From positions 1 through 62,705 of the IMG/VR virus record IMGVR_UViG_3300044788_000047: a DNA stretch of 62,705 nt. One strand, 5' to 3'. The first letter of the stretch is position 1, and each line of letters starts with the position of its first letter. The DNA comes from a virus (Duplodnaviria > Caudoviricetes). Below the pieces are notes generated by a model. It was given only the letters and a program-made list of their open reading frames with translations. It was not told where the DNA came from and did no database searches. The position numbers and the translations under genes are program-made. Positions 1-62,705 of the stretch are shown here, piece after piece.

Positions 1-144
1 ATCTCACGCGCCCACGTATCGAAATCCGTAGACCCGGCCTCGTAGACCGTCCCGCCGTAGTCCACCAAATCGTCAATGATGTCATCGGCCTCGTCCGCGC
101 CGATTGCCAGCGTCTCGATCGGCTTGTTGAGCTTGGCCTGCAAC
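1..144. repeat. Terminal overlap, left copy
   Basis: Identical to 62562-62705 except position 18 (A) vs 62579 (G), a synonymous GAT/GAC Asp codon on the minus strand. Confidence 0.97.
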
Positions 145-3100
145 CGCTTCTTGGCGGCCTCGGCCGCGGTCATGTCGAAGATTTTTACTCCTGGCCCCCC
201 GACGGCTGGCGCGGGAGCTTCGCCCCTTCCACCCCGTGCACCACCCCCTGATGGTGGGGAGGGAACAGTCGCCGCGGCGGGAGGTCCGGCTTGAGGGGCT
301 GCGGCCGAGGGAAGCTCGGCTGGGGGCGCGGCGGCAACGGCCGCATCGGCGCCGGGGGCAGCGCCAAGATCCTCGCCACCGCGGCCCGGTTGGGTCGGAT
401 AAAGGGAGCCCTGTTCAGGCGCATCTCGTTCCACCTTTCTGACGGCGGCTTCCCAGAAGTTGTCCCGTGTGAGATCCTGCGGCGGCAGGCCGGCGAGTTC
501 ACCCTGGTTCGGATCCGCGACCGCGGCATCGACCCGTTCGTAGTAGTTGGTGAGCGCCTCCTGAATCCGCTTGGATCGCTTGGCTTGGGCGTCGAACAGC
601 GCGAGGATCGACTTCGCCACCTGGCTGATACTCTCGTCGGGAATGAGCGATGGCTGCGTGAGTACGACGCCCTTTTCACTGTAGACGGGTTTGCCCAGGT
701 AGTTTTTTAGCGCGTCCGGATCGGAGCTCCCCCGAAGCTCGGAGAGCTTGAGCGCCGCGTCGGCGATCTCCTTGCTGAGGAGGAGCTGCGGCGCGATAGT
801 GGCGATCCGGCTCTCGACGGCGACCACCCGTGGGGCGATGTTCTGGAGCGCCATGAGGACATTCCGGATGTTCTCGTTCAGGTTCTCGGCCAGCGGAGCG
901 ACCAGGTTCTTGCCGTAGGCTTTGGCGAAGAGGGCGTTGCGTATCCTGGCCAAGCCTTCTTGACTGAGGCTCCCGTCTGGCGTGAGGTAGCGACCGCGCT
1001 CGGAGGCCGGCACGACGTCGGCCATGAAGGCGCGCACGAAGTCCCGGTTCTGCGCGGTGTTGATCTGTCCCGTCTCGGATGGCTGGAAGAGCGCGAGGAG
1101 TTTGGAGGACAGGTTCCCAGCGTCGATACCGGCGAGCTCGGTTGAGGACATCGCGGAGACGCTCGAGACGTTGGCTTCCTGCGCGAGCTTGGTGAGGTCC
1201 ATGGCCGGGTCGTCGATCACGCGCACGAGCACCGGAACGGTCGCCTTCTCGAAGTCTGCGGTGGAGATCCCAAACTTCTCGTGGTTCGCCTTGAGCCAGT
1301 CGTAGTACCGCTGCCCGGGCGCGCGGTCTCGCGCCTCCGGCCCGAAGGCCTTCCTGAGCGCCTCGGTACGCCGGTTCCCCGAGATGACGTTGCCGTACTG
1401 GTCGAGGATCGGGGCACCCTGGCTCGCGAGCCGGCTCTCCCCGAGCTGCTCCGGGTCGAGCTGGCCGGCGATCGCGTGCTCGGCCGCCTCATAGACGCCG
1501 CGCTCTTCTACCGCCCGCGGCTGGTACTGCTGCGGGTAGCCCGGCATCCGAGAGGTCCTGGCCTCCGGCAGGTCGATCACCGCCCACTTGAACGGCACCT
1601 TGGTCCCAGCTTCGGTCACGGCCTCGCCAGTGGCCCCGTACTGCGCCTTGAGTGACGGTTGTCCACCCGCGAAGCCTCGTTTCTCCAGCTCTTGAGCAAC
1701 CAAAGGGAACCTCTCCCACATCTCCTGCATGCCCATAACGAGTTGGCCCTGGACCCTGAACGTTTGTTGTGGTTTCCCTCCGACCGAGTAGGGACGCATG
1801 ATCTCAATGTTGGCGCGGCCAACTCGAAACGTCTGCGGCTCCATCGGGCCCGGTGCTGTGACCGTAGGTGTCACAGGTGTCGGCGCTGCTGGCGCCTGTG
1901 GCACCTCCGGCGGGACCTCGACAGGCCGGGCGGCCGGAGCCATCGTCTTGGCCTTGCGGATCTCCTCGTCGATGAAGGCCATCCGTCCGATGTCCACGGA
2001 CCCGGGTTCCCGCCCACGCAGGTTCGCTCGGATGTAGGTCCTGACCATCTGGCCGATGCGGCGGAGCGCCGGTTCTGGAAGCCCGGTATGAGCCTCGAGG
2101 GCAGCCAGGTAGTCGGCATCCCGCTTCGATGGCACCTGCTGGGCGACGATGTAGAGTCCCTTCTCGAGGTCCCGGGTGAAGGCAAGGTCGTAGGACTTGT
2201 CCTGGATGTTGTACCGGGGCTTGGCGCCGGCGAGCTCGCGTGGTAGGGTGAACTCGCCCTTGAGTGGGGCAGCAGCACCCGGTAGCTCCGGTGCCGCAGC
2301 GGCCGGAGCTTGAGCCGGAGATGGCTCGGCAGGGCGCGGGGCGGGGGTCTCCGGAACGGTCTCCCCAACAGCGGCAGGCGCTCCGGGGACCTCCGCCGGG
2401 ATGGTCACTTCTGGGGGTCCAGCGGGCCGCGCCGGGGCCTCTGGGGCGACTTCGGCCGCCGGAGGACGTACCACCTCAATGGGACCGGCCGGAGCCTCCT
2501 CTGGCCTTGCGGCGGCCTCTGGCGGAGCTTCTGGGGGTGCGGCCTCGGCATCCTCAGCTCGCTTCGCCCCCTCTTCGTAGGCGACCCGCCCGGCTTCCCG
2601 CTGGAGGATCGCCTGGGCGGCCGACAGCTCGGCCTCGTCCTGGGTCTGCCCCCTGCGCCGGAACACGCTCACCAGCCGGCCGAACTCGGCCGCCTCGACC
2701 TTCTGCCGGGCCTCGGCGATCGCGAGCTTGACCGTGTCGTCCAGCGGGACACCCTTGGCCTTAGCCTCCCGCTTGAGGCCCTCAAGGACCAGGCGAGGAT
2801 CCCGGCCGTGGAAGAGGAAGAGCATGTCCAGCCCGTAGTCGAAGGCTTTCTGGGCCAGCGGGCGCTCGTCGAATGGGTGCTGGAGGTTGACGGCGTCGTT
2901 CAGGACGGCCCCGATACCCCATCGGGCGGCGAGAGACGGGAGTTCCTGCCCGGTGAAGGTCCCGCTCACGCCACCGAACACCGCGCCCGTCAGGGCCCCC
3001 TTCCCAGCCGCCTTGAGCAGCACCTTGCCCGCCTCGAGCACCGACTCTTTCTCGAAGGCATGGCCGGTCTCGGCGGCGGCCGAGGCGGCGGCCAGCGTAG

Positions 3101-3902
3101 CCGCCTCCTTGATCACCGCCTTGCCGAGGATGGTCCTGGTGGTGTCGGTCATCAAGGGCGCGAGATACCGCCCGATGGTGGCTTCCGTAGCTGCGCGAGC
3201 CGCAATGTACGGTGTGGTCAGGAATCCAGCGACGTGGCCTGCCCCGTAGGCAAGACTCTCGCCGATCGTCTCGGGCTCCTGGTCGGGAAACCCCGTCGCG
3301 CGCTTGACGGCACCACCGATGCCCAGCGTTACCGCTTCCGCAGCTCCCGTGAGCGCCTGGCCGACCACTCTCGGGCCCGGCTCACGGTACTCGGATACCG
3401 GCACTCCGGTCTCTCGCGCGCCGAGCGCGACGACCGCCTTCGCGCCTTCGGCCGTTTTCCGCCGCTCCTCGGCCTTGCCGAGGTCGAGCAGGCCCAGACC
3501 CGAGAGGATCCTACCGAAGACCCCGGGCTCAGTGGTCCTCTTGGTGCCTTCCGGTGCAGCCCGAAGTTCTGGCTCGGTTGCGACTCGGGGTGGCCGCTCC
3601 GCTGGCTTCGGTGCCCTCGCCGCGAGGTCCTCTTCCATGCCGCCCGTCGAGAAGGCACGGCTGGCTACCTCACCTACGGCCCCAGCGGCAGCGCCCACGG
3701 CCTCTCCCACTGCACCGGCAACAGCGCCGGCTCCACGCGCGATCTGCCGCCCCGTTTCAGCGGCACCCTCGAGGAGCGGCCGGCCGAAGATCGAGGGATA
3801 CGCGGGCGCCGCCGGTTCAGGCGGGATCTGGAAGGCGCTCGTCGCCGGGGCCTCAGCCACCGCAACGGCCGCATCGTCTTCCGCGGGAATCGTGAACGCC
3901 AT
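1..3902 (-). CDS. Giant polyvalent virion/ejected protein, N-terminal ~1,300 aa (Pro/Ala linkers + ddrB-like ParB domain); continues across the origin into 62561-57281, ~3,060 aa total
   Basis: Missing from the ORF track because it runs off the edge. Manual translation from ATG at 3902 (TAATG overlap with the upstream stop) is open to base 1 and in frame with the 57281 ORF. Contains YQPR...LDPEQLGESRLASQGAPILDQYGNVISGNRRTEAL...PVLVR...DGSLSQEGLARIRNALFAKAYG. Confidence 0.88.
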   Translation of the reverse strand, partial: MAFTIPAEDDAAVAVAEAPATSAFQIPPEPAAPAYPSIFGRPLLEGAAETGRQIARGAGAVAGAVGEAVGAAAGAVGEVASRAFSTGGMEEDLAARAPKPAERPPRVATEPELRAAPEGTKRTTEPGVFGRILSGLGLLDLGKAEERRKTAEGAKAVVALGARETGVPVSEYREPGPRVVGQALTGAAEAVTLGIGGAVKRATGFPDQEPETIGESLAYGAGHVAGFLTTPYIAARAATEATIGRYLAPLMTDTTRTILGKAVIKEAATLAAASAAAETGHAFEKESVLEAGKVLLKAAGKGALTGAVFGGVSGTFTGQELPSLAARWGIGAVLNDAVNLQHPFDERPLAQKAFDYGLDMLFLFHGRDPRLVLEGLKREAKAKGVPLDDTVKLAIAEARQKVEAAEFGRLVSVFRRRGQTQDEAELSAAQAILQREAGRVAYEEGAKRAEDAEAAPPEAPPEAAARPEEAPAGPIEVVRPPAAEVAPEAPARPAGPPEVTIPAEVPGAPAAVGETVPETPAPRPAEPSPAQAPAAAAPELPGAAAPLKGEFTLPRELAGAKPRYNIQDKSYDLAFTRDLEKGLYIVAQQVPSKRDADYLAALEAHTGLPEPALRRIGQMVRTYIRANLRGREPGSVDIGRMAFIDEEIRKAKTMAPAARPVEVPPEVPQAPAAPTPVTPTVTAPGPMEPQTFRVGRANIEIMRPYSVGGKPQQTFRVQGQLVMGMQEMWERFPLVAQELEKRGFAGGQPSLKAQYGATGEAVTEAGTKVPFKWAVIDLPEARTSRMPGYPQQYQPRAVEERGVYEAAEHAIAGQLDPEQLGESRLASQGAPILDQYGNVISGNRRTEALRKAFGPEARDRAPGQRYYDWLKANHEKFGISTADFEKATVPVLVRVIDDPAMDLTKLAQEANVSSVSAMSSTELAGIDAGNLSSKLLALFQPSETGQINTAQNRDFVRAFMADVVPASERGRYLTPDGSLSQEGLARIRNALFAKAYGKNLVAPLAENLNENIRNVLMALQNIAPRVVAVESRIATIAPQLLLSKEIADAALKLSELRGSSDPDALKNYLGKPVYSEKGVVLTQPSLIPDESISQVAKSILALFDAQAKRSKRIQEALTNYYERVDAAVADPNQGELAGLPPQDLTRDNFWEAAVRKVERDAPEQGSLYPTQPGRGGEDLGAAPGADAAVAAAPPAELPSAAAPQAGPPAAATVPSPPSGGGARGGRGEAPAPAVGGPGVKIFDMTAAEAAKKRLQAKLNKPIETLAIGADEADDIIDDLVDYGGTVYEAGSTDFDTWARE

Positions 3903-5233
3903 TAGGGACTCGTGGACAGTAACCCCGCAGCGCGATCCGCTTCGGCCTGGGTCATGGTGCCGTTCGCGACGTTGTGGTCGAGGATCTGCTTGATGCGCTG
4001 CGGGCGTGTCATGGTCTTGGGCGGACTCTCCCGCATCGCCTTCTGGACCGCCGAGACCGCCTCATTGACGGTGACTTGCCGAACCGTCGCCCCTTTCGCG
4101 CCGCTGCCAATCTTGTCGAGTTCATCCGAATCCGCCGCAATCTGCTGGCGGGCGATCTCCTTGTCCTTCGGGAGCGCATTCGCCGACGTGAGGATCGACC
4201 GATTCTGGGCAATCCGCTTCGAGAGGACCGTCGCGCGCTCTTTGCCCTCTTTGCTCCCTCCTGCCGCCCCTGCCGCGCTCGGAGCCTTCCCCGGCACCGT
4301 CGCTTTGGTTTTGCGGGCCTCTTCGCCAGCGACCCGCTTCTGTTCCAGCAGGAACGGCTCATCGGCCGTCTTCTTGGCGGTCTCCATTGCACCGGCCTGC
4401 CGCACCTTTTCGTCGTCCTTCACGGACTGGGGCTTGAGCGCGTTCATCTTCGGCAGGAACCCGGGATGGAGACCCTCCTCTGCGCGCGACCACGCCTGCG
4501 ACGCAGAGAGGCTGGGATTGGCGACGCGCAACTGCGTGTACTTCTCGATGGCGGAGTACACCGCGTCCGGCTGGTTCTGCTTGACGTCCTCCAGCGTGTG
4601 CTTGTTGAGATCCTTCATCAGCGGGTGACTCGCTCCGATGGGGAACGCCTTGTAGATGGCGGCGATGCCATCGAGGCTCATCCGCGTCCGCTCTTCCGGG
4701 CTCTTCGCGGTCGCGGCATTCCTGATGGTATCTTGGTAGACGCCCAGCGCCCCGCCCAACTGCTTCGCGGTTTCGGAATCGTCGAGCAGGAGCTTGTAGT
4801 CTCGTAGCGCCTCCTTGACGTGGACAGGATTGCCGAGTTTCATCGCGAGGTTCACCAAGTCGAGCTGGAAGTCCTTGGGGTCGGCGTACCCGCCGGCATC
4901 TGGCTTCTTCTTCATGCGTTCCGCTATCGTGGCACCGAACGCGCGGGCGTCGTCCTGCCGCGTGATCTTCTGCCCCGCCTCCTTGAGCGCCAGCGCGTGC
5001 GTATCGCTGCTGATAGCCTGCTCCCGCAACTGCCCGGGAAGGAGTTGCTCCGCCATGTTGAGGCGCTGCTGGCTCCGCTGGCCTTCCTCGTCGCCTTGGC
5101 GCACTCGCGCAGTCGTCCCGTAGGCCTTGAGTCCCTCGTCCACCGCCCCCGAGATACCCTCGCCGAGCCGCTTCGCTGGCCCTTCGGCGACCTGCTCGTA
5201 GCCTTGAAGTCCTGCCAAGAGTCCCGCAGCCAT
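3902..5233 (-). CDS. Putative internal virion (DNA ejection) protein
   Basis: 443 aa, helical, Ala/Gln/Lys-rich; sits between the pilot-like gene and the giant protein as in podovirus ejection modules. Confidence 0.6.
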   Translation of the reverse strand: MAAGLLAGLQGYEQVAEGPAKRLGEGISGAVDEGLKAYGTTARVRQGDEEGQRSQQRLNMAEQLLPGQLREQAISSDTHALALKEAGQKITRQDDARAFGATIAERMKKKPDAGGYADPKDFQLDLVNLAMKLGNPVHVKEALRDYKLLLDDSETAKQLGGALGVYQDTIRNAATAKSPEERTRMSLDGIAAIYKAFPIGASHPLMKDLNKHTLEDVKQNQPDAVYSAIEKYTQLRVANPSLSASQAWSRAEEGLHPGFLPKMNALKPQSVKDDEKVRQAGAMETAKKTADEPFLLEQKRVAGEEARKTKATVPGKAPSAAGAAGGSKEGKERATVLSKRIAQNRSILTSANALPKDKEIARQQIAADSDELDKIGSGAKGATVRQVTVNEAVSAVQKAMRESPPKTMTRPQRIKQILDHNVANGTMTQAEADRAAGLLSTSP

Positions 5234-15639: not shown

Positions 15640-16833
15640 CTAACTCTCCTGTGAGGCCGCGTGCAAGCGGCCCGCGGCGAACAGCGCCACGATCGCCTGC
15701 TGCGGCATGTGAAACGTCGGACTCCCCAACGAGTTGACGGCCGCGACGATCGCGACGCCGACCCACATCAGATCCCTGTCCTGTCCGGTCCCCATCAGCA
15801 CCCAGGCGCCTCGGCTGAGACGCCAGACCCACCAGCCGACCAGCGCCACGCCGACCAGGCCGAACTCAAACCAGAGCTGGAGCGGCTCGTTGTGGGCCTG
15901 CATGGTGACGGGGGACCCGATCGCGCCGGCCTTCTGAGCCTGCTCATTGACCACGATCGACCAGAGCCTCCACGAGCCGGGCCCGTTCCCGACCACCCAA
16001 TGCTGCCGCAGATCCGGCCAGGCGTTCGCCCACACGGCCGTCCGGCCAGACGTGGCCGTCGAGAGCAGGGTGTCGCCGTGACTGTCCGGCCGCTGGATAT
16101 GCTGCACGCTCACCGCGACGATCAGCACCACGAGCGCCGCGCCCATGACGGGCCGCCACGATGAGGGCAGATCGCGCCAGGACATCAGCGCCAATCCGGC
16201 CGCGCCGGAGACCACGGGGCCGATGTTGCCGGTCGCGACGGTGCCGGCGACCACCAGTAGCGCCCACCAGCGACCACCGAGCGCGTAGACGACCGGCACG
16301 CCGAGCGCCAGGTAGGCGCCCCAGAAGTTCGGATGCGTGAGCCAGCCCATCGGCTTCCCGACGAATGCCTTGAGCAGTGTCGGCGTGCCTTGCGACGTCG
16401 TGACCCCGAGCCAGCGCAAGGGGTCGCCGAGGACATTCGGGCTCGGGTAGAACTCGAAGAGATTCATACCGCCGAGGATGCCTTGAATCGCCACGCCAAC
16501 CACGAGTGCCCAGGCGCAGCGGGTCGCCGCCACTTCCGACAGGGCCGCCGCTTCGACATAGAGCAGCGCCGCCATCACGAGGACGAACAACACCTGGAAC
16601 CCACGGATGGGGACGCCCGCCCACAGCACATGCGCCAGGGTCCATCCCAGAAAGAGGGCGACCGGCCAACTCGCCCGGCCGACCCACCGAAGCAGCAGCA
16701 GGCCGGCCGCCACCAGCATGTACGCGATGATGGCGCCGCGCTCGGGCACGAGCGCGAGGTTGAAGGGCAGCGGGAGGGCGAGGCTCCCGAGGAGCCCCAC
16801 CCAGACCGCCGGCCAGAGCGGGCGCGGTGTCAT
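15640..16833 (-). CDS. O-antigen ligase / O-oligosaccharyltransferase-like (Wzy_C family) polytopic membrane protein
   Basis: About 11-12 hydrophobic segments; G.L.HPNF.GAYL; SGR..VW..AW......W..GNGPGSW; QAHNEPLQLWFEFGLVG with the conserved Arg and His of the periplasmic loop. Confidence 0.85.
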   Translation of the reverse strand: MTPRPLWPAVWVGLLGSLALPLPFNLALVPERGAIIAYMLVAAGLLLLRWVGRASWPVALFLGWTLAHVLWAGVPIRGFQVLFVLVMAALLYVEAAALSEVAATRCAWALVVGVAIQGILGGMNLFEFYPSPNVLGDPLRWLGVTTSQGTPTLLKAFVGKPMGWLTHPNFWGAYLALGVPVVYALGGRWWALLVVAGTVATGNIGPVVSGAAGLALMSWRDLPSSWRPVMGAALVVLIVAVSVQHIQRPDSHGDTLLSTATSGRTAVWANAWPDLRQHWVVGNGPGSWRLWSIVVNEQAQKAGAIGSPVTMQAHNEPLQLWFEFGLVGVALVGWWVWRLSRGAWVLMGTGQDRDLMWVGVAIVAAVNSLGSPTFHMPQQAIVALFAAGRLHAASQES

Positions 16834-31120: not shown

Positions 31121-31264
31121 TCACGACCACGACCGCGACCGCGACCACGACCGCGACCGCGACCCCGACCGCGACCCCGACCCCGACCACGACCCCGACC
31201 CCGACCGCGACCCCGACCCCGACCGCGACCAGACCCTCCAGCGTTGCTTCAAGGCGCGGCGCAT
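31121..31264 (-). CDS. 47-aa Ser-Arg/Gly/Trp dipeptide-repeat peptide
   Basis: MRRALKQRWRVW(S-R/G/W)17S; ATG 1 nt after the upstream stop; DNA is (TCG-NGG)n. Confidence 0.7.
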   Translation of the reverse strand: MRRALKQRWRVWSRSGSGSRSGSGSWSGSGSRSGSRSRSWSRSRSWS

Positions 31265-31265
31265 C

Positions 31266-31523
31266 TTACTTCACTCGGCCGAAGCTCTCGATACATGCCT
31301 GCATGATGTACAGTTCGTGCGGGAGCGGTTGGGCGTCCTTCCACTTCGGATCGGTAAACGCCCCGGTTTCATAGACGATCGCCGGGTCGGCTAGGAGCAC
31401 GCAATCCGCATTCACGCCGGTCAACGTGCCCGTGTAGATATAGTTCAAGCAGAAGAGGGTGATACGCTCTCCGAGGAGCTTCATCAGACCTTCGCCGCTC
31501 ACGTCCTCGACCAGCTTCTTCAT
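31266..31523 (-). CDS. Sm/LSm-fold-like small protein
   Basis: Helix then LLGERITLF...YIYTGTLTGVN..CVLL.D..IV...LYI....IESF; AGGAG RBS. Confidence 0.55.
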   Translation of the reverse strand: MKKLVEDVSGEGLMKLLGERITLFCLNYIYTGTLTGVNADCVLLADPAIVYETGAFTDPKWKDAQPLPHELYIMQACIESFGRVK

Positions 31524-32307
31524 GCTGTCTCTCCTGTGGTGGATGCTATACCCCCCTGCGTGGCGGCGCGGGCGCGCGGATCATGAATAAGACACGAGAA
31601 TGAGCATGGATGTTTCCCCTTGTGGCACGTCCCAGCGCACGGGCAGTACAGTTTCATTCCGTCCCTCCTTGCGCGGCGGCGCGGGCGCTCTTGGCTAAAT
31701 CTTTATTGGCTTGTTCTGTCAGCGCGCTGAACAAGCCGTGATATTCACACGCCTTTACGAGCGCGATCAGATCGGTCTCGATACGTTTGGCTCTCGACCG
31801 GCGATCGTTGTTCAAAAAAACATCCGCGCCAGCACGGGTAGCCTCCGCAAGAGTTGTCATCTTCCCGCGGCGGCGCGGGCCTCAAGTGTTTGGATTACAA
31901 ATTGACCGTTGTACATTTTCCTTCCGTTGAACAACGCCGCCGCCGCCGTCCACGTCTCCTGTTCACGTACCTTGAGACGTTCAGCCAGGTTATTGATGGA
32001 CGCGCAAGCGAGCTTTTCTTGACCCTTGAGCCGCTCGATCTCCCGCGCCTGCTCCAGCTCGGTAAGGGTAAGGGCAATCCATACTTCAAGTGATGTCAAT
32101 GTCGATGTAGCCATGATCGTCCTCGCCTTCTCTAGCATCGCGGGTGTTAGCGTCGTCATGGGCACACACACGCGAATGGGGTGCCGTAACACCCCCAACG
32201 TCCATTGGGCAGCGTGACGATCCATCCGACGACGTGTCCACATTCACATATGAGAAATGGGCTTACCCGTACATGAGGTTTCGTCGCCACCGCCTCGGGC
32301 GTCGGGG

Positions 32308-32559
32308 TCATCGCCCGCCCTCCTCCACCGCGTCGGCTTCGCAATCGTCGAGCTTCAGGTTGATCTGGTGCCCGAGCCTCGCGGCCATCGCGAGCGCCGT
32401 GCGAAGATTCCCTCGCCAGTTGATCCGGATCTTCTCGAGCCCGGCCTCCGGCACCCACGGCGAGTGCCCCGCAAAGAGCGCCGTCTCGTAGCGCGCGAAG
32501 AGTTCCTCGAGCAACTCTCCGGTCGGAATCAACTCGTGCGGCCTCGTGGTGGTCTCCAT
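32308..32559 (-). CDS. Hypothetical protein (83 aa), possibly leaderless
   Basis: ATG 7 nt below a candidate -10 box. Confidence 0.5.
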   Translation of the reverse strand: METTTRPHELIPTGELLEELFARYETALFAGHSPWVPEAGLEKIRINWRGNLRTALAMAARLGHQINLKLDDCEADAVEEGGR

Positions 32560-32566
32560 GCCCGAG

Positions 32567-32596
32567 AGGATATGATATTGTTTCGGTACCTGTCAA
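32567..32596 (-). promoter_or_regulatory. Sigma70-type promoter candidate
   Basis: TTGACA-N18-TATCCT. Confidence 0.5.
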
Positions 32597-32774
32597 GCTG
32601 TATTTTCGGGGGACTAACGAAGAACATGAACCCAATCGGCCCAACACCAAGAAGCCAGAGATTGAGATAGCGATTGGCGTAGGGCCATGCCCACGGCCTC
32701 CAGAACAGACGAAGCGGACCTAGGTCAAGCACGACCACCTCCGCCACTCGGTCACATGGTAGCCTCCCTTGGTC

Positions 32775-32788
32775 GTTCCACGTGGAAC
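32775..32788. promoter_or_regulatory. parS-type palindrome (ParB loading site)
   Basis: Perfect 14-bp palindrome GTTCCACGTGGAAC, matching the core of the chromosomal parS consensus TGTTNCACGTGAAACA; in a gene-poor region. Confidence 0.75.
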
Positions 32789-32804
32789 CCTAGTCATGGG
32801 CCAG

Positions 32805-32833
32805 AGGATGGCTGAGAATTGAAAAGCTGTCAA
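32805..32833 (-). promoter_or_regulatory. Sigma70-type promoter candidate reading into parS
   Basis: TTGACA-N17-CATCCT. Confidence 0.55.
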
Positions 32834-33213
32834 GAATTTTCGGACTTGGGAATCGGGAGCGATGTGCGACGAGAGGAACCAATTTGCCGAGGCCAGCAAT
32901 ATGCTACGCAGTGCGTTAGGAGTTGAGAATGGGGATGGGACAGACGGAAACGGGGATCTCTCTCCCCGTGGGGCCGGGCGTGGGTGACGGGGGGCCCCGG
33001 GTCGCCGTTTTGTGGGCCTGCGGGTGCGCCTGGGCGTGGTGTGTGGGGCAGGGGTAGAGGTCGAGGTGGAACCTCGGCGGCCGGCTGGAGGCCTGAGCTG
33101 CCTGCGAGCTCGGCGTCATGATGGCATTAGGGCATCAGGTTCGCCAGTTTCCATTTTCTCCGGGCGGTGCGTCATCGTATATACGTCAGCATTTACACAT
33201 AGATACGTGGATT

Positions 33214-33241
33214 AGGTCTGATAATGGACATTATGTCAACC
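33214..33241 (+). other. dif-like XerC/XerD recombination site
   Basis: AGGTCTGATAA-TGGACA-TTATGTCAACC: 11-6-11 layout with inner ATAA/TTAT symmetry (E. coli dif is GGTGCGCATAA-TGTATA-TTATGTTAAAT); in the AT-rich non-coding region. Confidence 0.8.
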
Positions 33242-33447
33242 ACCGTCCTGGCGTCATGATGCTAGTCTTTACAGGCACTTAGTTTATCTGGGGCATTTGT
33301 GCCCCACTCTTGGCGGTTAGAGGCGGAGCTGATCTGAGAGTGGGTGCCCGTACTCCTTATCTTATCCTTACTACTTCTACTACTACTACGTCACCAGTGT
33401 GTAGATATGTCCTGTATATCCTCTCCACATACTCTCCATACCATATC

Positions 33448-33460
33448 AATCAATCCTTTA
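33448..33460 (+). promoter_or_regulatory. IHF-like site near dif
   Basis: AATCAATCCTTTA fits WATCAANNNNTTR; two TTTWCAGGCACTT repeats nearby (~33268, ~33461). Confidence 0.35.
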
Positions 33461-33574
33461 TTTTCAGGCACTTTACCTACTTATAAACATGGCGACCAGA
33501 ACAGTCGGCGCTGAAAGTTGCTGAAAGGCATTGGCTATGTACGTTTTCGAGATAAAACCTCGTAATTGGCTGGT

Positions 33575-34093
33575 TCACTTCTGACCAGAAAGAGATCGTA
33601 GTATGAGCATCCCACGCTCAAGTCGTCGGTACAGCGTGGCACGATCAACACGCAGGAGGTCGGCAATGGTCTCCGCTGAGTCGAAGAGGCCGGAGGCACG
33701 GAGAGCAAGCGGGAGGCGCAAGCGAGGGTCTGGGAGCACCCGATGAATGGCGAGGTGGTTGGGGTAGGCGACTGGCAGGGGAGCTGGGGCGATGAGCTTA
33801 GCAGCGCGGCGCAGGACCGTGTAGGGGTCTTGGGTGAGGGCAGGCAGGGCGTAGGCGACGGTCCTATGCTGCTCGCGTGATCGACAGAGCAGGACAACCA
33901 CAGCGCGGGTCAGGGGATTCAGGCAGGCTATCAGCGGGTCGGTGGACGGGTATTCTAGCGGGTGGTGCGCGCGTTCGTCACGGAAGATGTCGAGGGGCAC
34001 GCGGCTGACGGGCTCGGGCTCGCGGTGGGTGGATCCGATGAGCTGGGCGAGCTCGCGGCGCCGACCGAGGTCGAAGGCCTGGACGCGGGTCAC
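33575..34093 (-). CDS. Putative transcription regulator with C-terminal sigma-region-4-like HTH (candidate late activator)
   Basis: C-terminal ETIADLLRVDRATLYRRLERGMLILR. Confidence 0.55.
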   Translation of the reverse strand: MTRVQAFDLGRRRELAQLIGSTHREPEPVSRVPLDIFRDERAHHPLEYPSTDPLIACLNPLTRAVVVLLCRSREQHRTVAYALPALTQDPYTVLRRAAKLIAPAPLPVAYPNHLAIHRVLPDPRLRLPLALRASGLFDSAETIADLLRVDRATLYRRLERGMLILRSLSGQK

Positions 34094-34338
34094 GGCATCG
34101 GCTCGGGGCCTTTCAGGGGAGGCGGCATCTGGGGCAGGCCGAGCGCGCGGGCGATCCAGAGCTGGTGGCAGTCGGGATGAAAGACCGCGGGGCCTTGGAC
34201 CGTGAAAGGGTGGGTCAGCTCCACCTTATCTCCGCACGCGGCGCAGACCCAGAGGATGTGGCGGTGGGTCGTCGGTCGTATCGCGCGCGAGCCGTTTTGG
34301 CCGCGGGTGCAGGCGTCCATCATCGGAAAGGCGTCCAC
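34090..34338 (-). CDS. Small Cys/His zinc-finger-like protein
   Basis: CAAC...FHPDC; overlaps the next gene's start; directly below a promoter candidate. Confidence 0.5.
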   Translation of the reverse strand: MDAFPMMDACTRGQNGSRAIRPTTHRHILWVCAACGDKVELTHPFTVQGPAVFHPDCHQLWIARALGLPQMPPPLKGPEPMP

Positions 34339-34346
34339 GAGGCAGG

Positions 34347-34376
34347 AACGTAGCCGAACTGGGGCGCGGCTGTCAA
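34347..34376 (-). promoter_or_regulatory. Sigma70-type leftward promoter candidate
   Basis: TTGACA-N18-TACGTT at the point where the strands diverge. Confidence 0.55.
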
Positions 34377-34508
34377 GATATAATAGGTTTCGGGCAGGGC
34401 GAGCCGCCCGTGTAAAACTTCCATTAGTTTCGGGCAGAATGGGGGAGTGCCTAAAGAATACGCATTCGTGAATCCTTTAGTTTTATCGGGTTATGATTTA
34501 GATTGACG

Positions 34509-34523
34509 TGGCACGGGCCTTGC
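34509..34523 (+). promoter_or_regulatory. Sigma54 (-24/-12) promoter candidate heading the early genes
   Basis: TGGCACGGGCCTTGC = TGGCAC-N5-TTGC; GTTTCGGGCAG direct repeats upstream at 34387 and 34427. Confidence 0.7.
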
Positions 34524-34608
34524 GTGTATGTGTAGCATGATGAGGCCGCAGGACACCACAGGAACCCGCACCCAGGAGACCAACGACTCGAGGGAGGGAG
34601 AAAACGAC

Positions 34609-34968
34609 ATGGACTCAAACGAGGTTTGTACTGACTGCGGCGCAGGCGGCATCCTAATCAGCCCAGCGGGGCAGTGCCATCAGTGCGAGCAGGATCAACG
34701 TGAGCTGGACGCAGAGGACGGGGAGAGGAACGACATGAACAGCAGATACCGGCTCGTAGCGGCCGACGACATGAGCGTATCGGAGGAAATCACCAGCGTC
34801 TTTGACGCCCGTCTGATTGCTCAGGCCCCCGCCATGCGGGAGGCGCTCAACGGTTTCCTTGAGTGGTACAAGGGACTTGAAAGTCCCGGCCTTGCGCCTC
34901 ATTCGCTGGAACTGACTGCGCGGCTTCGTGAGGCCCGCGCCGTCCTGCGGGCCTGTGAGGAGACCTAG
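34609..34968 (+). CDS. Early hypothetical protein (CxxC/CxxC + ARLIAQAP motif)
   Basis: GGGAG RBS; ARLIAQAPAMREAL shared with 37097-37410. Confidence 0.6.
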   Translation: MDSNEVCTDCGAGGILISPAGQCHQCEQDQRELDAEDGERNDMNSRYRLVAADDMSVSEEITSVFDARLIAQAPAMREALNGFLEWYKGLESPGLAPHSLELTARLREARAVLRACEET

Positions 34969-35393
34969 CCATGCCGGCCGTATACTGCCCCGTGAAGGGT
35001 CATGAAAAGATCCGCCTCCGTTGTCACGCGACTCGCCGCGGGCTGGTATCAGACGATCTTTGCCACGGTGCCCGATGCACGGGCCAAGGGCGCGGAGTTT
35101 GCCCACTGCCTGAACGGCATCGGTGGCTCGCCGGTTCACGTGGTGGACATGGAGCCGGTCAATGCCTAACCTCGTGAAGGTTGCCGTAATTCGGATGCCC
35201 GGCTATCCCATCGGTCAGCCCGCGCCGTGCTACCTCAACTGTCCTTGTGGCGCCAAGCCGAAGCGGGGCGGACTGGCTGAGTACGTCCCCTGCGTGTGCG
35301 GGGCCGTGTACTCGTTCAACGGCTACCTTGTCAACTCATGGCCGATAGCAGGCCGCAGGGTGCAGTGAACCTATCACGGGAGAGAGGGACGAC

Positions 35394-56871: not shown

Positions 56872-57284
56872 TTCTTCCTCTTGGGCCACTTCGGGAGCCA
56901 CTTGGGGAGACGGTCGAAGGCGGCGTCGTACTCGGCCCAGTTCGCGTTCAATTCGTGTGCGACCAGGCGCTCGATCGCGATGCCGAACCGATGCTCCTTG
57001 TAGTACGGCGCCTTCGGGTCGTCGCCGGCCTCGTCGATCGCCGGCCCCTTCACGCCCTTTGGCGCTTTCCACGCAAGATCCCAGTTGTCCACTTGCTTTG
57101 CCGTGATGCCCCGGAAATGACACAGCATTGCCTCGTGAAGCTCGTGCGTCGCGACCAGAAACTCATAGTGCTCACAGCCCATCTTCGAGACGCGGATCTC
57201 CAACGTGTCACCGTCAAACCACCAATTTCCGGACGTGTCGTAGGTTTGCTCGTCATGGGGGATGGTCTTGATGACGATGTTCAT
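56868..57284 (-). CDS. Small putative metal-binding hydrolase-like protein (HExxE)
   Basis: Y.T.G.W...EI.VS...LVA.HELHEA.LC...E.GD...APY..EH..GI..ER; coupled to both neighbours. Confidence 0.55.
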   Translation of the reverse strand: MNIVIKTIPHDEQTYDTSGNWWFDGDTLEIRVSKMGCEHYEFLVATHELHEAMLCHFRGITAKQVDNWDLAWKAPKGVKGPAIDEAGDDPKAPYYKEHRFGIAIERLVAHELNANWAEYDAAFDRLPKWLPKWPKRKK

Positions 57285-60200
57285 CGGGCGTACTCCAGTT
57301 GACGGCTCTCGTCGTAGGCGACTCGGTCCCGCCTGATCTCCTGCATCACTCGTCGGCTTTCGTTGAAGGACTCGAGGAGCACCCGCTCGCGGGCGTTCGC
57401 CTTCGTCGCGGCATCCATCGTCGTGTCCGTGCGGATGCGGTCGAGCGTCCGGCGTTGGTTCTTGAGTTGCGCGGCGTGTCCAGCGACCACGCCCGATTCC
57501 TGGAGTTCGAACTCGTGGGCCGCTCGGAAGCTCTCCTGTTGGCTCTCCGGCAATCCCCGGAGCGCCTGCATGGCTCCTGTGACCTGCTTATAGAAGTCGT
57601 AGAACTCTTCCTGCGGTTTCGAGAAGGTCGGGGGAAAGCGGGCCAAGAAGCGATTGACGCCGGGATATTCGGCGAGTCGCATCTCGGGTGCAGCCGGATC
57701 CCCCTTGGTGAGTGCCAGGATGCGGTCGGTCGCCGAGAGCGCGTACTGGCCATAGTAGCCGGCCAGGCCTCGGAAGATGTGTTCGATGTCGTTCGGCGTG
57801 AGCTTGTTGAGTCCCGGGACCGACTGAAAGGCCTTCGACAGCTCCACCGCGCCCGCAGGACCACCCGGACGGCCTTGCATGGGGGGCGGCAGGTTCCGCT
57901 GCCACGTCTTGTTGATGTCGCGGTTGAAATAGAAGTCCTTGTTCGTGGCGATCTCCCCGATGACGCGCACGACGGTTGGGAGCGCCTCGACGCGGCTGGC
58001 CTGCCAGAAGCTCTTGGCGAGGCGCTGGAAGAGCGCCGGCTCGCTGCCGTTGGCCCACTCGAGAATCTGGCGCGGGGCGGTGGCGAAGACCCACCCGAGC
58101 CCGTAGGCTTTCGGCATACTGAACATTTCGTTACTACGACGCTCCTGGTCTTCAAGGGAGAGCGTCTCCCACTCATCGGAGGCGATCCGAAGTCCAGGCG
58201 GGATGAGATAGAAGTTCATGTTCCGCTGTTCATCCGTGAGCGCCTGATAGCGTGGGTCGTCCTTGTTGAGCAGGTAGCCCAGGATCTCGGCGAACATGGT
58301 CAGACCACCAATGTAGAGCATCCCTCGACCGATGCGACCGGCGGGGTTTCTGTACATCTCACGGAACATCCGCGCGTTCCGGTACATCCCCTGGAAGGCG
58401 GGGTTCATAAACGTCACGGCCTGCATGTAGCGCCGGAACTGCTGGTTGGCCCCGTGCAGGTCGAAGTCGATGCCCGCCTCGCGCGCCTGATAGCCGGCTT
58501 CGATGTTGACGGATCTCCGGCCAGCCAAGACGTCCACCGGCCGCGCCTTCTCGATCGCCAGTCCAGCCACGCCGACCCGCGTCGTCTCGTCCCAGACACG
58601 GAGAATCTTCTCTGCCCAATGCCTGACGTCACGCCGTAGCTTGCCCTGATACCAGGCGCCGTCCTTGAGGTCCTGAATGTTCCTCGCGAGGGCCTCGGGG
58701 CTCACGTTCCGGTATGAGAAGATCCTGCCGCCGCCAGCGAGAAAGCGCCGGTAGGTCTTATCCGACTCGAGGATGCCCCTGAAGAACGGCGGGATCGGCC
58801 CCCATCCCGCAGCCATCGCCTCTTGTTGCTCGCGCGCCATGTGCGCCGGCATGAAGGACGGCGAGAGCACGACGCCGCGCCGGAGCATCCTGGCTGGGCC
58901 CCGCAGGAAGGTGTTGAAGGCCATCGTCGCCCAGGCCGTGTTCTCGGCCATCATGGGCATGTCCTTGCCGGTGAGCGCCCCGATCGAGCGCATGAGCATC
59001 GGGTTGAGGATCTGGACGACGTGCGGTGTTCCGCGGCGATAGACCACCATTTCGTTCGCCGGGAGGTTGTCTCGGCTCGGACGGAAGATCGTCGCCAGCC
59101 GGTTCAGGTCGAGCTGGTCGAGGATGTCGAGCGAGATCCCGGCATCGCGGAAGGCATCCTCGAGCTCCCGCCGGAACGACGCGAGCTGGACCGTGGTCGC
59201 CTTCATGGGCGTCGCCACCTTCTCCAACTGCATCCCGAGGAACTTGCCAGTGGCGAGCGCCTTATTCTCCGTCAGGTCGAGCGTCCGTGCGAGGACCTCA
59301 TTGCGCTTCACGGCGGAGATGATCGCCAGCAGGTTGCTCTGGTAGAGCTCGAGCGGGTCGAGCACGATCCGTTCGCTGGTGCCTCGGGTCCGGTGGAACC
59401 CCTTGCCGAGGCCGACCTTGGTCCCGAGCGCGCCGACCGCTTGCGGGTCACCGGGATTGTCCATGAGCCGGCCCAGAGGCACATAGAGTTCGATCGCGTC
59501 CTTGATGGCGGCGATCTCCTGTGGCCCCTTGAGGTCTGAGGAGCCGACCCACTCGAGGAAGGCATCGTTGAAACCCTGCCACTCGTCCATGACTCCGTTG
59601 AAGTCCGGATGTGTGGCCTCGAGGCGGGCGATCACGTCGGCCACGTCCACGCTCGACAGGTCGCCTAGCTTGCGAAGGTGCTCGGCTTGCTGCTGATAGA
59701 TCGGCCGATCCGACATCGCGCGAGACTCCATCACGCGCGCCATGGCGTAGGTGCGGAAGTCGTTGATTCGATTACCGACCGGCTTGAGGATCTGGAAGAA
59801 GCTCTTGGTGCCTGGGATGGGCTCGTCGGTCGTGGGGTCGAGGCGCCCCTGGGGCACGCTCGGATGGTCTGGATCGCCCATCAGCGCCGCGTGCGCGTTG
59901 TAGATCGACCCGCCCATCGTCCGCCCCAGCTTGTTCGGGTCCTGGTCGGCCGCGAGCTTGGTCCCTTCAGGATCGACCAACTGCACCATCTGCTGAAACG
60001 GGAGCCAGCGGTTGACGAACTGAAAGATGTGCTCCTGGCCCTGGCGCTGGAGCTCGCCGATGCTGGCAGCTTGCTTCGCGCGCTCGATGAGCGGGCGCTT
60101 CTCCCGCGTCGCGATCATGCGGCCGATGCGCTCTTCCGGCGTTGAGGCTCGAAGCGCAAGGATCTGGTCGCGGAAGGCGTTGAAGGCCTGCTCGAGGTCC

Positions 60201-62705
60201 GGCACCGTTGCCAACCGCGACTCGAACCACGGGTAGAAGGTCGGCGCGACCTGGCGGGCCAGCGCGGGATCGGTGGCGTAGAGCCGTGCGAACTCGGCGA
60301 ACCCTTCCGACAACTTCGGTCCCTTCACCCCTTGCACCTGCGTCAGCGCGTCCATTTCTGCGGCGAACGGCTGGAGCTCCTGATTACTGATCTGGAGTCC
60401 GGTCATCACGCCGCGGACCATGCTCGTGCCCTGCAAACCGTGGCCGAACTCGTGGGCGAAGGTGTCCACGTCCGTCCCCTTGCGGGCGCGAATGTTGCCC
60501 GAGAGCTTGTGCCGCCAGCCGAGGACCCCCTTGCCGACGACGTGACCCTGGATGGCGAGGGCGCCAGACTTGGCCATGCGGAGCGCCTCGGCCATCGCCT
60601 GAATCATCTGGTCCTTCCGGGGAGTGTCCGCGGCCTTCGTGCCGAACATACGCCGCACTTGGCTCTGGGGTGGCGCTGGGCGCGTCGGCGTTCTCGCCCC
60701 GCCGACGGCCATGCCTTCTCGCTCGGGCACCACCTCTTGCTCTGGCGTCACCTCGAGCGGCTCTTCGACGCCCATCTGTTCCTCGCCGGTGCCCCCGATG
60801 AAGTCGCCCTCACCAATCCCCTGCGTGCCCACATCGAGCGCCGGGACGTCTCCGGAGACGACCGCGTTGAGCATTTTCATCTTCCGAGCGATGATCCCCA
60901 TGTTCCAACTGTCGATGTTCGTGTCGGCGTACAAGACGTGGATTCTGGGGTAGCTCTTGGTGGTCATGCGCCACACCCGGCCGATCGCCTGCACCATATC
61001 GACGGCCGAAAAGGGCGACGTCACGATCACCATGTCGCGCGGGGCGTTGCCCACGACGTCATCGAGGTTGATACCCGTGCCACCCTTCTCCACGGTGGCC
61101 AGGACCACGCGCGTCTTCCCGGCCTGGAAGTCGTCCATGCTCCCCGTGGTGCCCGAGGCGCCACCGTGGATCTCCGAAATGTCCGTGATGCCCTCGCGCG
61201 CGAGGGCCTCCCGCATGAGCTTGACCGTCCCATCGCTCTGGTGGACGACGTCCCGCTCTTCCCCGACCACGTTGCCGAAGGCGTCGCGCACGACGCGCTT
61301 GATGGCGACCTCAGAGTAGTTGACCCTCGCCATGAAGACGACGACCTTGCGATTCTCCGCGAGCGAGGCTTTGATGGCGGCAATGGTCTGCTCTACCTTG
61401 AAGGTTTCGAGGGCCCGCCGTTGGTGCTGGAGCATCGAGGCCCGCCGAATCCCGACGAGGCGGTCCCCGTATTCGTTGATGTACGCTGTCTCGATCTTGT
61501 TCTGCACCATCATCGCCCCAGGCGAGGGCGGGATGGCGGTGAACAGGACCGTGACGCCATCGAGGGCGATCTCGCGCTTGATCATTCGGCCCTGGCGCGT
61601 GAGCTCGGTAAACTCCTTCTCCATGTTTTCGAGGACCTTCTGGAGGCCAAGCGCGGGGTTGGCCTCCCAGATCATCACCGCGCCCTTGGGGGTCCGCTGC
61701 TTTCTCTGGATCAGGCCCATGCGCTTGAAGACGTCGGCCGCCGAGACCTTGCCGAAGAGACCGGATTCCACCATGTAGTGCACGTGATGCGCCATGTCGG
61801 CCGGGGTCGCCGAGAAGAAGAGATTGCCGCCGGAGGCGCGGATCATGCGGAGGCCGGTCTTCGAGGTCTCGCTCGAGATGTTCTTGAGCTTGTGGGCTTC
61901 GTCCCAGATCATCACCGTGTTGTCGTCCACGGGGAGGTTCTGGAAGCGGTGGTAGCTCGTGACATAGGTCACGGCGCCAGCTTCGACGGGCCCGGAGGTC
62001 CACGGCTTGAGAACCACACCCATCGCGTCCGCGTCTTTCTTGTACGACCCGCTGAACGCCCACTGATCCTTGAGCTTGCGGAGCTGGAGAACCTGTTGCG
62101 GTGAGACAATCACGACCTTGTGGCCCCGGTCGGCCAGGATCTTCGCGGCGGCGATCTGCTCTCGCGTCTTCCCGACGCCGGTCATGTCGGCGTTGGCGAA
62201 GGCACCGACCTCCTCGAGCGCCTTGAGAGACGCCGCGACCCCTTGGCGCTGCGCCGGCGTCAGATGTTGAGCAAGGCTCTGAGGTATGACGGACTCATCG
62301 ACCGTGGGGGTGACGTCGTCCCGGGCGGTGATGATCCGGCGAGTTCGCTCATCGCCAGGGCGCTCAGGGTGTCGCTCGACGGGGCCTGCTCCGGGTCCGG
62401 GGGGAGCTGGTCCGGCTTGACCGGCCACGCCTGCGGGTCCTGCTGGGGCTTCTGGAACAGCTCCTTGAGCGGCTTGGCCACGGCTCGCCTCCATGCGGGC
62501 GCGAATCCCCTCGAAAGCCGGGCGGAGGTACTCTTCGACCCCTTCGCCCAGTGTGCTACGGATCTCACGCGCCCACGTGTCGAAATCCGTAGACCCGGCC
62601 TCGTAGACCGTCCCGCCGTAGTCCACCAAATCGTCAATGATGTCATCGGCCTCGTCCGCGCCGATTGCCAGCGTCTCGATCGGCTTGTTGAGCTTGGCCT
62701 GCAAC
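57281..62705 (-). CDS. Giant polyvalent protein, C-terminal part: Strawberry-notch/SNF2-like SF2 helicase, zincin-like (HExxH) peptidase, LPD38-like domain
   Basis: ADMTGVGKT (Walker A), DEAH, SATP, GGTGINL, QAIGRVWR; AHEFGH...EGFAEF; C-terminal IDFDLHG...FMNPAFQG...NKDFYFNRDI. Confidence 0.88.
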   Translation of the reverse strand, partial: LQAKLNKPIETLAIGADEADDIIDDLVDYGGTVYEAGSTDFDTWAREIRSTLGEGVEEYLRPAFEGIRARMEASRGQAAQGAVPEAPAGPAGVAGQAGPAPPGPGAGPVERHPERPGDERTRRIITARDDVTPTVDESVIPQSLAQHLTPAQRQGVAASLKALEEVGAFANADMTGVGKTREQIAAAKILADRGHKVVIVSPQQVLQLRKLKDQWAFSGSYKKDADAMGVVLKPWTSGPVEAGAVTYVTSYHRFQNLPVDDNTVMIWDEAHKLKNISSETSKTGLRMIRASGGNLFFSATPADMAHHVHYMVESGLFGKVSAADVFKRMGLIQRKQRTPKGAVMIWEANPALGLQKVLENMEKEFTELTRQGRMIKREIALDGVTVLFTAIPPSPGAMMVQNKIETAYINEYGDRLVGIRRASMLQHQRRALETFKVEQTIAAIKASLAENRKVVVFMARVNYSEVAIKRVVRDAFGNVVGEERDVVHQSDGTVKLMREALAREGITDISEIHGGASGTTGSMDDFQAGKTRVVLATVEKGGTGINLDDVVGNAPRDMVIVTSPFSAVDMVQAIGRVWRMTTKSYPRIHVLYADTNIDSWNMGIIARKMKMLNAVVSGDVPALDVGTQGIGEGDFIGGTGEEQMGVEEPLEVTPEQEVVPEREGMAVGGARTPTRPAPPQSQVRRMFGTKAADTPRKDQMIQAMAEALRMAKSGALAIQGHVVGKGVLGWRHKLSGNIRARKGTDVDTFAHEFGHGLQGTSMVRGVMTGLQISNQELQPFAAEMDALTQVQGVKGPKLSEGFAEFARLYATDPALARQVAPTFYPWFESRLATVPDLEQAFNAFRDQILALRASTPEERIGRMIATREKRPLIERAKQAASIGELQRQGQEHIFQFVNRWLPFQQMVQLVDPEGTKLAADQDPNKLGRTMGGSIYNAHAALMGDPDHPSVPQGRLDPTTDEPIPGTKSFFQILKPVGNRINDFRTYAMARVMESRAMSDRPIYQQQAEHLRKLGDLSSVDVADVIARLEATHPDFNGVMDEWQGFNDAFLEWVGSSDLKGPQEIAAIKDAIELYVPLGRLMDNPGDPQAVGALGTKVGLGKGFHRTRGTSERIVLDPLELYQSNLLAIISAVKRNEVLARTLDLTENKALATGKFLGMQLEKVATPMKATTVQLASFRRELEDAFRDAGISLDILDQLDLNRLATIFRPSRDNLPANEMVVYRRGTPHVVQILNPMLMRSIGALTGKDMPMMAENTAWATMAFNTFLRGPARMLRRGVVLSPSFMPAHMAREQQEAMAAGWGPIPPFFRGILESDKTYRRFLAGGGRIFSYRNVSPEALARNIQDLKDGAWYQGKLRRDVRHWAEKILRVWDETTRVGVAGLAIEKARPVDVLAGRRSVNIEAGYQAREAGIDFDLHGANQQFRRYMQAVTFMNPAFQGMYRNARMFREMYRNPAGRIGRGMLYIGGLTMFAEILGYLLNKDDPRYQALTDEQRNMNFYLIPPGLRIASDEWETLSLEDQERRSNEMFSMPKAYGLGWVFATAPRQILEWANGSEPALFQRLAKSFWQASRVEALPTVVRVIGEIATNKDFYFNRDINKTWQRNLPPPMQGRPGGPAGAVELSKAFQSVPGLNKLTPNDIEHIFRGLAGYYGQYALSATDRILALTKGDPAAPEMRLAEYPGVNRFLARFPPTFSKPQEEFYDFYKQVTGAMQALRGLPESQQESFRAAHEFELQESGVVAGHAAQLKNQRRTLDRIRTDTTMDAATKANARERVLLESFNESRRVMQEIRRDRVAYDESRQLEYAR
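62562..62705. repeat. Terminal overlap, right copy
   Basis: Matches 1-144 with one mismatch; lies inside a coding region. Confidence 0.97.

Follow-up and report, generated by a model that had tools for sequence, protein, structure and literature searches.

A perfect 14-bp palindrome, whose sequence is that of a chromosomal parS variant, was found 425 bp from a dif-like site within the largest non-coding gap of a tailed phage genome. With a probability put at roughly 0.5, the palindrome is judged to be a genuine and selected host-type parS, with which the phage would offer host ParB a single point of loading, beside a dif-like XerCD site in its control region. The phage would thereby probably borrow the chromosome-handling proteins of its host. 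The occurrence of host-type parS on a phage is already known (phi29, Nf); the present case stands apart in that one parS and a dif-like site occur together in the control region of a tailed phage, the structural relatives of which carry an integrase. If true, this would amount to phage inheritance in which lysogeny genes are dispensed with and the host's centromere and dimer-resolution sites are displayed instead, a carrier or episomal route that lifestyle predictors relying on genes would miss.

General Features of the Genome

The window (the whole stretch of DNA that was analyzed) is a 62,705-bp virus record of IMG/VR, labelled "linear" and with a CheckV completeness of 80%. On joining of the contig ends, a single open frame of 3161 codons was obtained, which encodes the giant polyvalent protein listed in Table 1. 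As this frame runs uninterrupted over the contig ends, the genome is probably complete, being either circular or circularly permuted. Its size of ~62 kb is in line with that of the Bcep22-like phages (61–64 kb).

Altogether 108 ORFs were profiled against Pfam, and 74 of these also against PHROGs. The structural and lysis set recognized in this way consists of a P22-type portal, a capsid protein, the large terminase subunit and a lysozyme, and the other families matched were a Cas4-like exonuclease, endonuclease VII and a DUF3560/primase-like protein. A reading of the DNA made earlier from its letters only (hereafter the sequence-only reading) had pointed to a lone initiator-like gene. Such a match does exist in PHROGs (phrog_16167), but it is weak (E of 4e-6), and the protein had no match in the plasmids searched.

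The same reading had stated that neither ParA nor a canonical ParB is encoded, and that the ddrB-like domain of the giant protein belongs to a separate family; both statements were borne out. None of the 108 ORFs matched ParB_N, the ParB HTH, ParA, recombinase or resolvase families in Pfam. Six-frame searches of the window returned zero matches to ParB_N and zero to Phage_integrase, and the sole match to AAA_31 (ParA-type ATPases) was an 11.7-bit P-loop within the helicase region. The ddrB-ParB domain is PF18763, a member of the ParB/Srx superfamily, and a ParB HTH domain was not detected in the giant protein. Because no lysogeny gene was recognized among the ORFs scanned, a persistent state of this phage is only assumed. 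As for the marks of a phage-plasmid, namely an initiator and partition genes of its own, the window was found to hold the weak initiator-like match and no parAB.

The Non-coding Gap and its Promoter-like Units

The palindrome, the promoter-like units P1 and P2 and the dif-like site all lie in one gap (Table 1), in a genome of which only 8.8% is non-coding according to crude GC3-based gene calls. The palindrome was confirmed to occur exactly and once in the window, beginning 16 nt downstream of the −10 hexamer of P1 as the sequence-only reading had described. It fits the parS core family GTTNCACGTGNAAC at 14/14 positions, and its outer flanks are C..C compared with the canonical T..A. Three perfect 14-bp palindromes were identified in the window, and the parS-like one alone falls outside coding DNA (again by crude gene calls). 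The half-sites are not enriched, with nine copies of GTTCCAC found against ~7.6 expected by our own arithmetic.

Table 1. Positions of the features discussed, numbered from the first nucleotide of the window.
Feature	Position	Strand	Remarks
Giant polyvalent protein, ddrB-ParB + helicase + LPD38 domains	1–4061 joined to 57284–62705	-	Domains from Pfam
Wzy_C (O-antigen ligase/polymerase-like) membrane protein	15640–16833	-	Within structural module
Largest non-coding gap, 1015 bp	32560–33574		Contains P2, P1, parS, dif-like site
P2, paralogue of P1, TTGACA-N18-TATCCT	32567–32596	-	Found by simple promoter scan, 10/12 matches
Hypothetical 25-codon ORF containing the palindrome	32720–32797	-	ATG at 32797, counterpart of P2's start codon
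Perfect 14-bp palindrome GTTCCACGTGGAAC, host-type parS core	32775–32788		Sole exact copy in window
P1, promoter-like unit TTGACA-N17-CATCCT	32805–32833	-	TTGACA 32833–32828, CATCCT 32810–32805
12-bp direct repeat GGCGTCATGATG	33112–33123 and 33250–33261	+	Exact copies bracketing the dif-like site (family D20)
dif-like 28-mer	33214–33241	+	Putative XerC arm AGGTCTGATAA, centre TGGACA, putative XerD arm TTATGTCAACC
P0001, 172-aa protein, weak C-terminal helix-turn-helix	33575–34093	-	Next gene upstream of the gap

P1 is below the threshold of the simple promoter scan, and its −10 hexamer fits at 3/6 positions. P2 is located 240 bp beyond P1, and the two units share ATCCTCT...CATG (repeat D13). 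The pattern TTGACA-N15–19-ATCCT occurs exactly twice in the 62.7 kb, these being P1 and P2, against an expectation of 0.05, and none of 100 shuffles reached two. The gene at 32308–32559, the first of a long leftward operon, has its ATG 7 nt beyond the end of the P2 −10 hexamer, a leaderless-type layout. A longer version of the frame that contains the palindrome (32720–32899) had no family match in Pfam or PHROGs.

The gap also has an AT-rich zone (~33300–33600) in which the G+C content falls to 41%. No Rfam match was obtained across 31500–35000, and the predicted fold of the leader RNA was no better than that of shuffles (z = +0.89). The sole tandem repeat found is a TAC x7 microsatellite at 33369–33389, near the dif-like site. 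An oriC mimic was considered and rejected: the DnaA-box consensus (9 bp, up to one mismatch) was matched four times in the window, where 3.9 matches are expected, and nowhere in the gap. For P0001, encoded next to the gap, a single homologue was found among 5.8 billion proteins; P0005, encoded on a Logan contig of 1081 nt, shares 61% identity with P0001. Its helix-turn-helix was matched by HTH_22, HTH_8, HTH_23 and HTH_17 at E values of 0.04–0.12, and among the proteins of the phage P0001 is the sole candidate to bind sites in the gap.

The Palindrome as a Chromosomal parS Site

By its sequence the palindrome belongs to the genuine chromosomal parS variants. The earlier description of it as a standard one held: the 14-mer stands beside parAB and mnmG in genomes, and it is identical to the 14-bp core of Pseudomonas aeruginosa parS1–4 as given in PMC4368675. 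It makes up both of the two parS sites in a MAG titled "delta proteobacterium" (G002), both of the two in an Anaeromyxobacteraceae MAG (G003), 3/13 in a Kribbella genome (G004) and 0/6 in a Dactylosporangium genome (G005). The sole parS site of Candidatus Multivorans (Acidobacteriota; G001) is the T/A variant. The parS family was matched in 132 of the 151 sampled genomes of the phylum of G002, which is a candidate host phylum, and many genomes there possess two identical parS sites ~1.8 kb apart, directly on either side of mnmG (loci L303–L313 and L326). In one of these genomes (G007; L326) the paired sites flank mnmG within an mnmE-mnmG-rsmG-parA-parB cluster, upstream of rsmG-parA-parB, and in G002 the sites are placed between parB and rsmG.

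With regard to the positions outside the core, T..A flanks were present at 16/35 chromosomal sites, a rough figure (46%) because the sites were hand-picked from 17 genomes, some of them near-identical, and C..C flanks at 0/35. Each non-canonical flank of the phage site occurs singly among the chromosomal and listed viral sites; the pair C..C does not. The P. aeruginosa sites parS1 and parS4 are described as having an outer mismatch, C at the last position, with high affinity being kept (PMC4368675). It is likely that a compatible ParB would bind the phage palindrome.

The dif-like Site and Signals of the Host

The dif-like 28-mer contains a 21-nt core, GATAATGGACATTATGTCAAC, at 33220–33240. 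Its distance from the palindrome is close to the ~430 bp that had been claimed. The core cannot be a product of chance, and the dif-like site is real. The 21 nt are identical to chromosomal sites in nine fetched loci (e.g., Kribbella). When two central positions were left free, the core pattern was found at at least 120 GTDB loci, and 117 of those listed are Actinomycetota according to their record titles. The three non-Actinomycetota among the listed loci are the "delta proteobacterium" MAG, Candidatus Multivorans and the Anaeromyxobacteraceae MAG (G002, G001, and G003, respectively).

The left arm of the phage site (TCTGATAAT) has the form typical of the phylum of G002 (15/16 matches there), with G002 and G024 differing from the phage at 1/24 positions. 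The central GGACA and the right arm are of the Kribbella type, with two loci (L102 and L088) differing at 1/24 by our own count. The dif-like site thus fits the Actinomycetota (Kribbella) and the lineage of the "delta proteobacterium" MAG equally and gives no host call. Some sampled genomes of each candidate host group natively carry the parS variant of the phage, and a leaderless-type start such as that at P2 would fit several phyla. The structural genes favor a Gram-negative host; the phages matched by portal and capsid all have hosts of that kind.

Homology to host DNA ends at the core motifs, and consequently neither the parS nor the dif-like site comes from a captured host fragment. When the dif-like site was compared by blastn with 50,697 phage records, no match was better than E = 3, and the same was true of plasmids. 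The 12-bp direct repeats around the site may be binding sites for accessory proteins.

Occurrence of parS by Chance and on Other Viral Contigs

The number of copies expected per window is ~3e-4 for the exact 14-mer and ~2e-3 for the 16-variant family (Markov orders 0–3, calculated analytically). The latter value is not rare over the ~250,000 windows that were screened, so the case rests on context and not on the number alone. A shuffle figure of 28/100 counts matches with up to two mismatches and is for that reason uninformative on the exact match.

In the whole IMG/VR collection the 14-mer was found in at least 120 contigs, compared with 58 for a control word consisting of the letters of the 14-mer read backwards, which is likewise palindromic (L182–L301 versus L328–L385). 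T..A flanks were present at 55/121 listed viral sites (45%) as against 3/58 control sites (5%), and the viral share equals that seen at the chromosomal sites (16/35). C..C flanks were seen at 0/121 listed viral sites. From the excess over the control and the T..A flank pattern it follows that orphan host-type parS on phage-like DNA is not random, which suggests that such sites are widespread and selected. A chromosomal-type ParB was detected by tblastn within 2 kb in 2/120 listed viral parS loci, only 49 of which have full 2-kb flanks.

The pairing with dif is a different matter. A dif-like motif was present within 2 kb in 0/120 other listed viral parS loci (49 with full 2-kb flanks), which means that the combination of parS and dif is not general. 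In four distant relatives (BcepIL02, RPZH6, Itty13, and Gerry) and the contig L002, parS (up to one mismatch) was found in 0/5 records. In a background set of loci with only single domains in common, parS was present in 0/55.

Relatives and Physical State of the Genome

The portal and capsid proteins share 26–27 and 30–35% identity, respectively, with those of the Bcep22/BcepIL02 group and of relatives from Ralstonia, Pseudomonas and Klebsiella. Only L002 (81% portal identity), L003/L323, L324, and L325 count as true relatives, L002 and L003 being the nearest, and each of them ends before the parS region. No relative spanning that region was found among viral contigs searched with the flanking proteins, the portal, the DUF3560 protein and proteins of 1017 and 421 aa, nor among metagenome contigs (TerL and portal alignment) or genome contigs (portal alignment). 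Since BcepIL02 has a tyrosine recombinase and a cI-like gene, the cis sites of the present phage stand in place of the integrase module of its relatives.

An integrated relative was sought by portal alignment in 185,579 species, each represented by one genome, and in 401 genomes of the phylum of G002, and none was found. Low-depth contigs of this phage were identified in sediment and soil runs (X2–X5), those of X4 and X5 leaving the palindrome uncovered. A Logan contig in the sediment run X2 spans both sites (31189–34274) with no differences, and X2 may be the source sample. Contigs also bridge the dif-like site in X3 (32881–33363) and X4 (33084–33260). It follows from these contigs, unbroken across the dif-like site in three runs, that an unintegrated form exists; an integrated form may exist beside it.

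Proposed Role of the Site and Alternative Explanations

In the proposed mechanism, the injected phage genome would circularize and host ParB would load at 32775–32788, spreading onto the adjacent phage DNA. Host ParA, possibly with SMC, would then handle the phage circle as cargo, by which unintegrated genomes would reach the daughter cells, and phage dimers would be resolved by host XerCD via the dif-like site. An alternative fate of the cargo would be carriage into spores, as for phi29. Spore formers are known from some lineages of both candidate host groups, and the parS may also bring this phage into spores in a phi29-like manner. Because the parS is located just downstream of P1, where the long leftward operon begins, bound ParB would probably dampen that promoter too.

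Precedents for both activities have been described in P. aeruginosa, where parAB with a single parS2 stabilizes an unstable plasmid (PMC4368675) and ParB at the intergenic sites parS3 and parS4 represses adjacent promoters (PMC5521831). It is likely that the palindrome is under selection. That partition is the main use of the site is a tentative view, for which we would give slightly less than even odds. A more far-reaching proposal, in which the integrase/attP module of the relatives has been swapped for a borrowed parS and dif and the phage would be a self-replicating episome that host ParABS partitions and host XerCD resolves, while the phage itself encodes no trans-acting gene for maintenance, is considered doubtful.

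ParB might instead be recruited for something other than partition. The parS could be a switch that silences the long leftward (late) operon, or a weapon that titrates host ParB and SMC, in which version many replicating phage copies may disturb the segregation of the host chromosome. A switch would suit the placement of the parS relative to the paired units P1 and P2, and repression of neighboring promoters is reported for ParB at parS3/parS4 (PMC5521831). No lysogeny or partition gene that would indicate a plasmid state was found. However, P1 is a weak candidate given its −10 hexamer (3/6), and P2, further downstream, drives the first real gene with no parS of its own. The adjoining dif-like site, moreover, suggests handling of a circular replicon over regulation, and recruitment of ParB for purposes other than partition is regarded as unlikely. 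Rather less credit is given to a palindrome that arose by chance and is not selected, at which host ParB would bind incidentally and to no consequence. The expectation of ~2e-3 per window does amount to hundreds of accidental family matches over all windows screened, and from the 58 occurrences of the reversed control in IMG/VR a few dozen accidental copies are to be expected; the present site is single, has C..C flanks and has no counterpart in the four distant relatives or on the contig L002. Against this, the flanks of the listed viral sites resemble those of real parS and not those of the control (55/121 versus 3/58), which suggests that few are accidental, and the site falls within the small non-coding fraction, in the one large gap, at 425 bp from a host cis site that is certainly non-random.

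A phage element that only looks like parS would be either an operator (e.g., for P0001) or part of a leaderless ORF or 5' leader transcribed from P1. P0001 is encoded 800 bp away and has a weak C-terminal helix-turn-helix, and the palindrome does lie inside a 25-codon frame opening at an ATG equivalent to that of P2. For an operator to fit a host centromere accidentally at 14/14 positions is, however, as improbable as the chance reading itself, the window has neither a second copy nor an array of operators, and neither the leader fold (z = +0.89) nor Rfam gave any sign of a structured leader, which makes a look-alike improbable. Also to be weighed is that the dif-like site is an attP for XerCD integration at the host dif, as in IMEX, whereby the parS would enter the chromosome or act only before integration. 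The dif-like character of the 28-mer, the finding of no recombinase gene, and the fact that relatives integrate by their own tyrosine recombinase all speak for this possibility. No integrated relative was found among the 185,579 species and 401 genomes searched, though, and the contigs are unbroken across the dif-like site in three runs, even if contigs cannot prove absence. An ectopic, terminus-proximal parS is in addition described as disturbing segregation in Bacillus subtilis and P. aeruginosa strains that lack native sites (PMC4368675). The earlier claim that a parS integrated at dif should harm the host accordingly has a published basis, restricted in that account to strains without native parS sites, and an attP is thought very improbable.

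Comparison with Known Systems

Viewed as a host-type parS beside a XerCD site, the arrangement has its nearest counterpart in phi29, which is described as having five host parS sites and using Spo0J for spore entrapment (PMC2731898). As in the published description of phi29 and Nf (PMC2731898), partition genes of the phage's own are missing and host chromosomal ParB is provided with a binding site. It differs from phi29, reported as having five sites on a linear protein-primed genome, in that a single site is present on a circularizing Bcep22-type podovirus, together with a dif-like site; where a phi29-type phage would have several parS sites, only one was found in the window. The chromosomal parS of P. 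aeruginosa has the identical 14-bp core, and parS1 and parS4 also end in C (PMC4368675). Chromosomal sites lie near oriC beside parAB, whereas the phage site is non-canonical at both outer positions and lacks a ParB gene in cis.

IMEX phages and plasmid multimer-resolution sites resemble the present case in that a mobile replicon with no recombinase of its own bears a dif-like 28-mer. Known IMEX are mainly filamentous phages; a 2025 paper is said to have extended coverage to double jelly-roll phages, and to our knowledge no tailed phage is among them. The window phage differs in that no integrated copy flanked by dif halves was found for it in the genomes searched.

With Bcep22/BcepIL02 (Lessievirus) the phage shares portal, capsid, a genome of ~62 kb and a giant polyvalent protein. 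BcepIL02 has a tyrosine recombinase and a cI-like regulator and no parS; in the window phage this is reversed, with a dif-like site in addition. Phage-plasmids such as P1 and N15 are low-copy episomes with active partition and dimer resolution, for which they possess their own ParA/ParB, centromere and recombinase. In contrast, the window phage would need to obtain all trans factors from its host.

Other Observations

The Wzy_C-like gene within the structural module (Table 1) may be a surface-modification (conversion) gene. When its product was used for host inference, one weak match was obtained among 151 genomes of the phylum of G002 and none among 151 genomes of the phylum of the Kribbella genome (G004), an outcome that gives no guide to the host. 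In all four metagenome runs a short GC-rich stretch at 31121–31264, with a 47-codon ORF of GC2 0.9, has a depth of 115–400 compared with ~5–9 in the remainder, together with many loose ends, and represents a repeat or low-complexity motif common to other organisms. In the soil run X5, short contigs of a variant of ~97% identity were found over the AT-rich part of the gap at 33244–33594 (5 of 170 and 4 of 151 nt differing), which indicates that a close relative of this phage exists outside the sediment samples.
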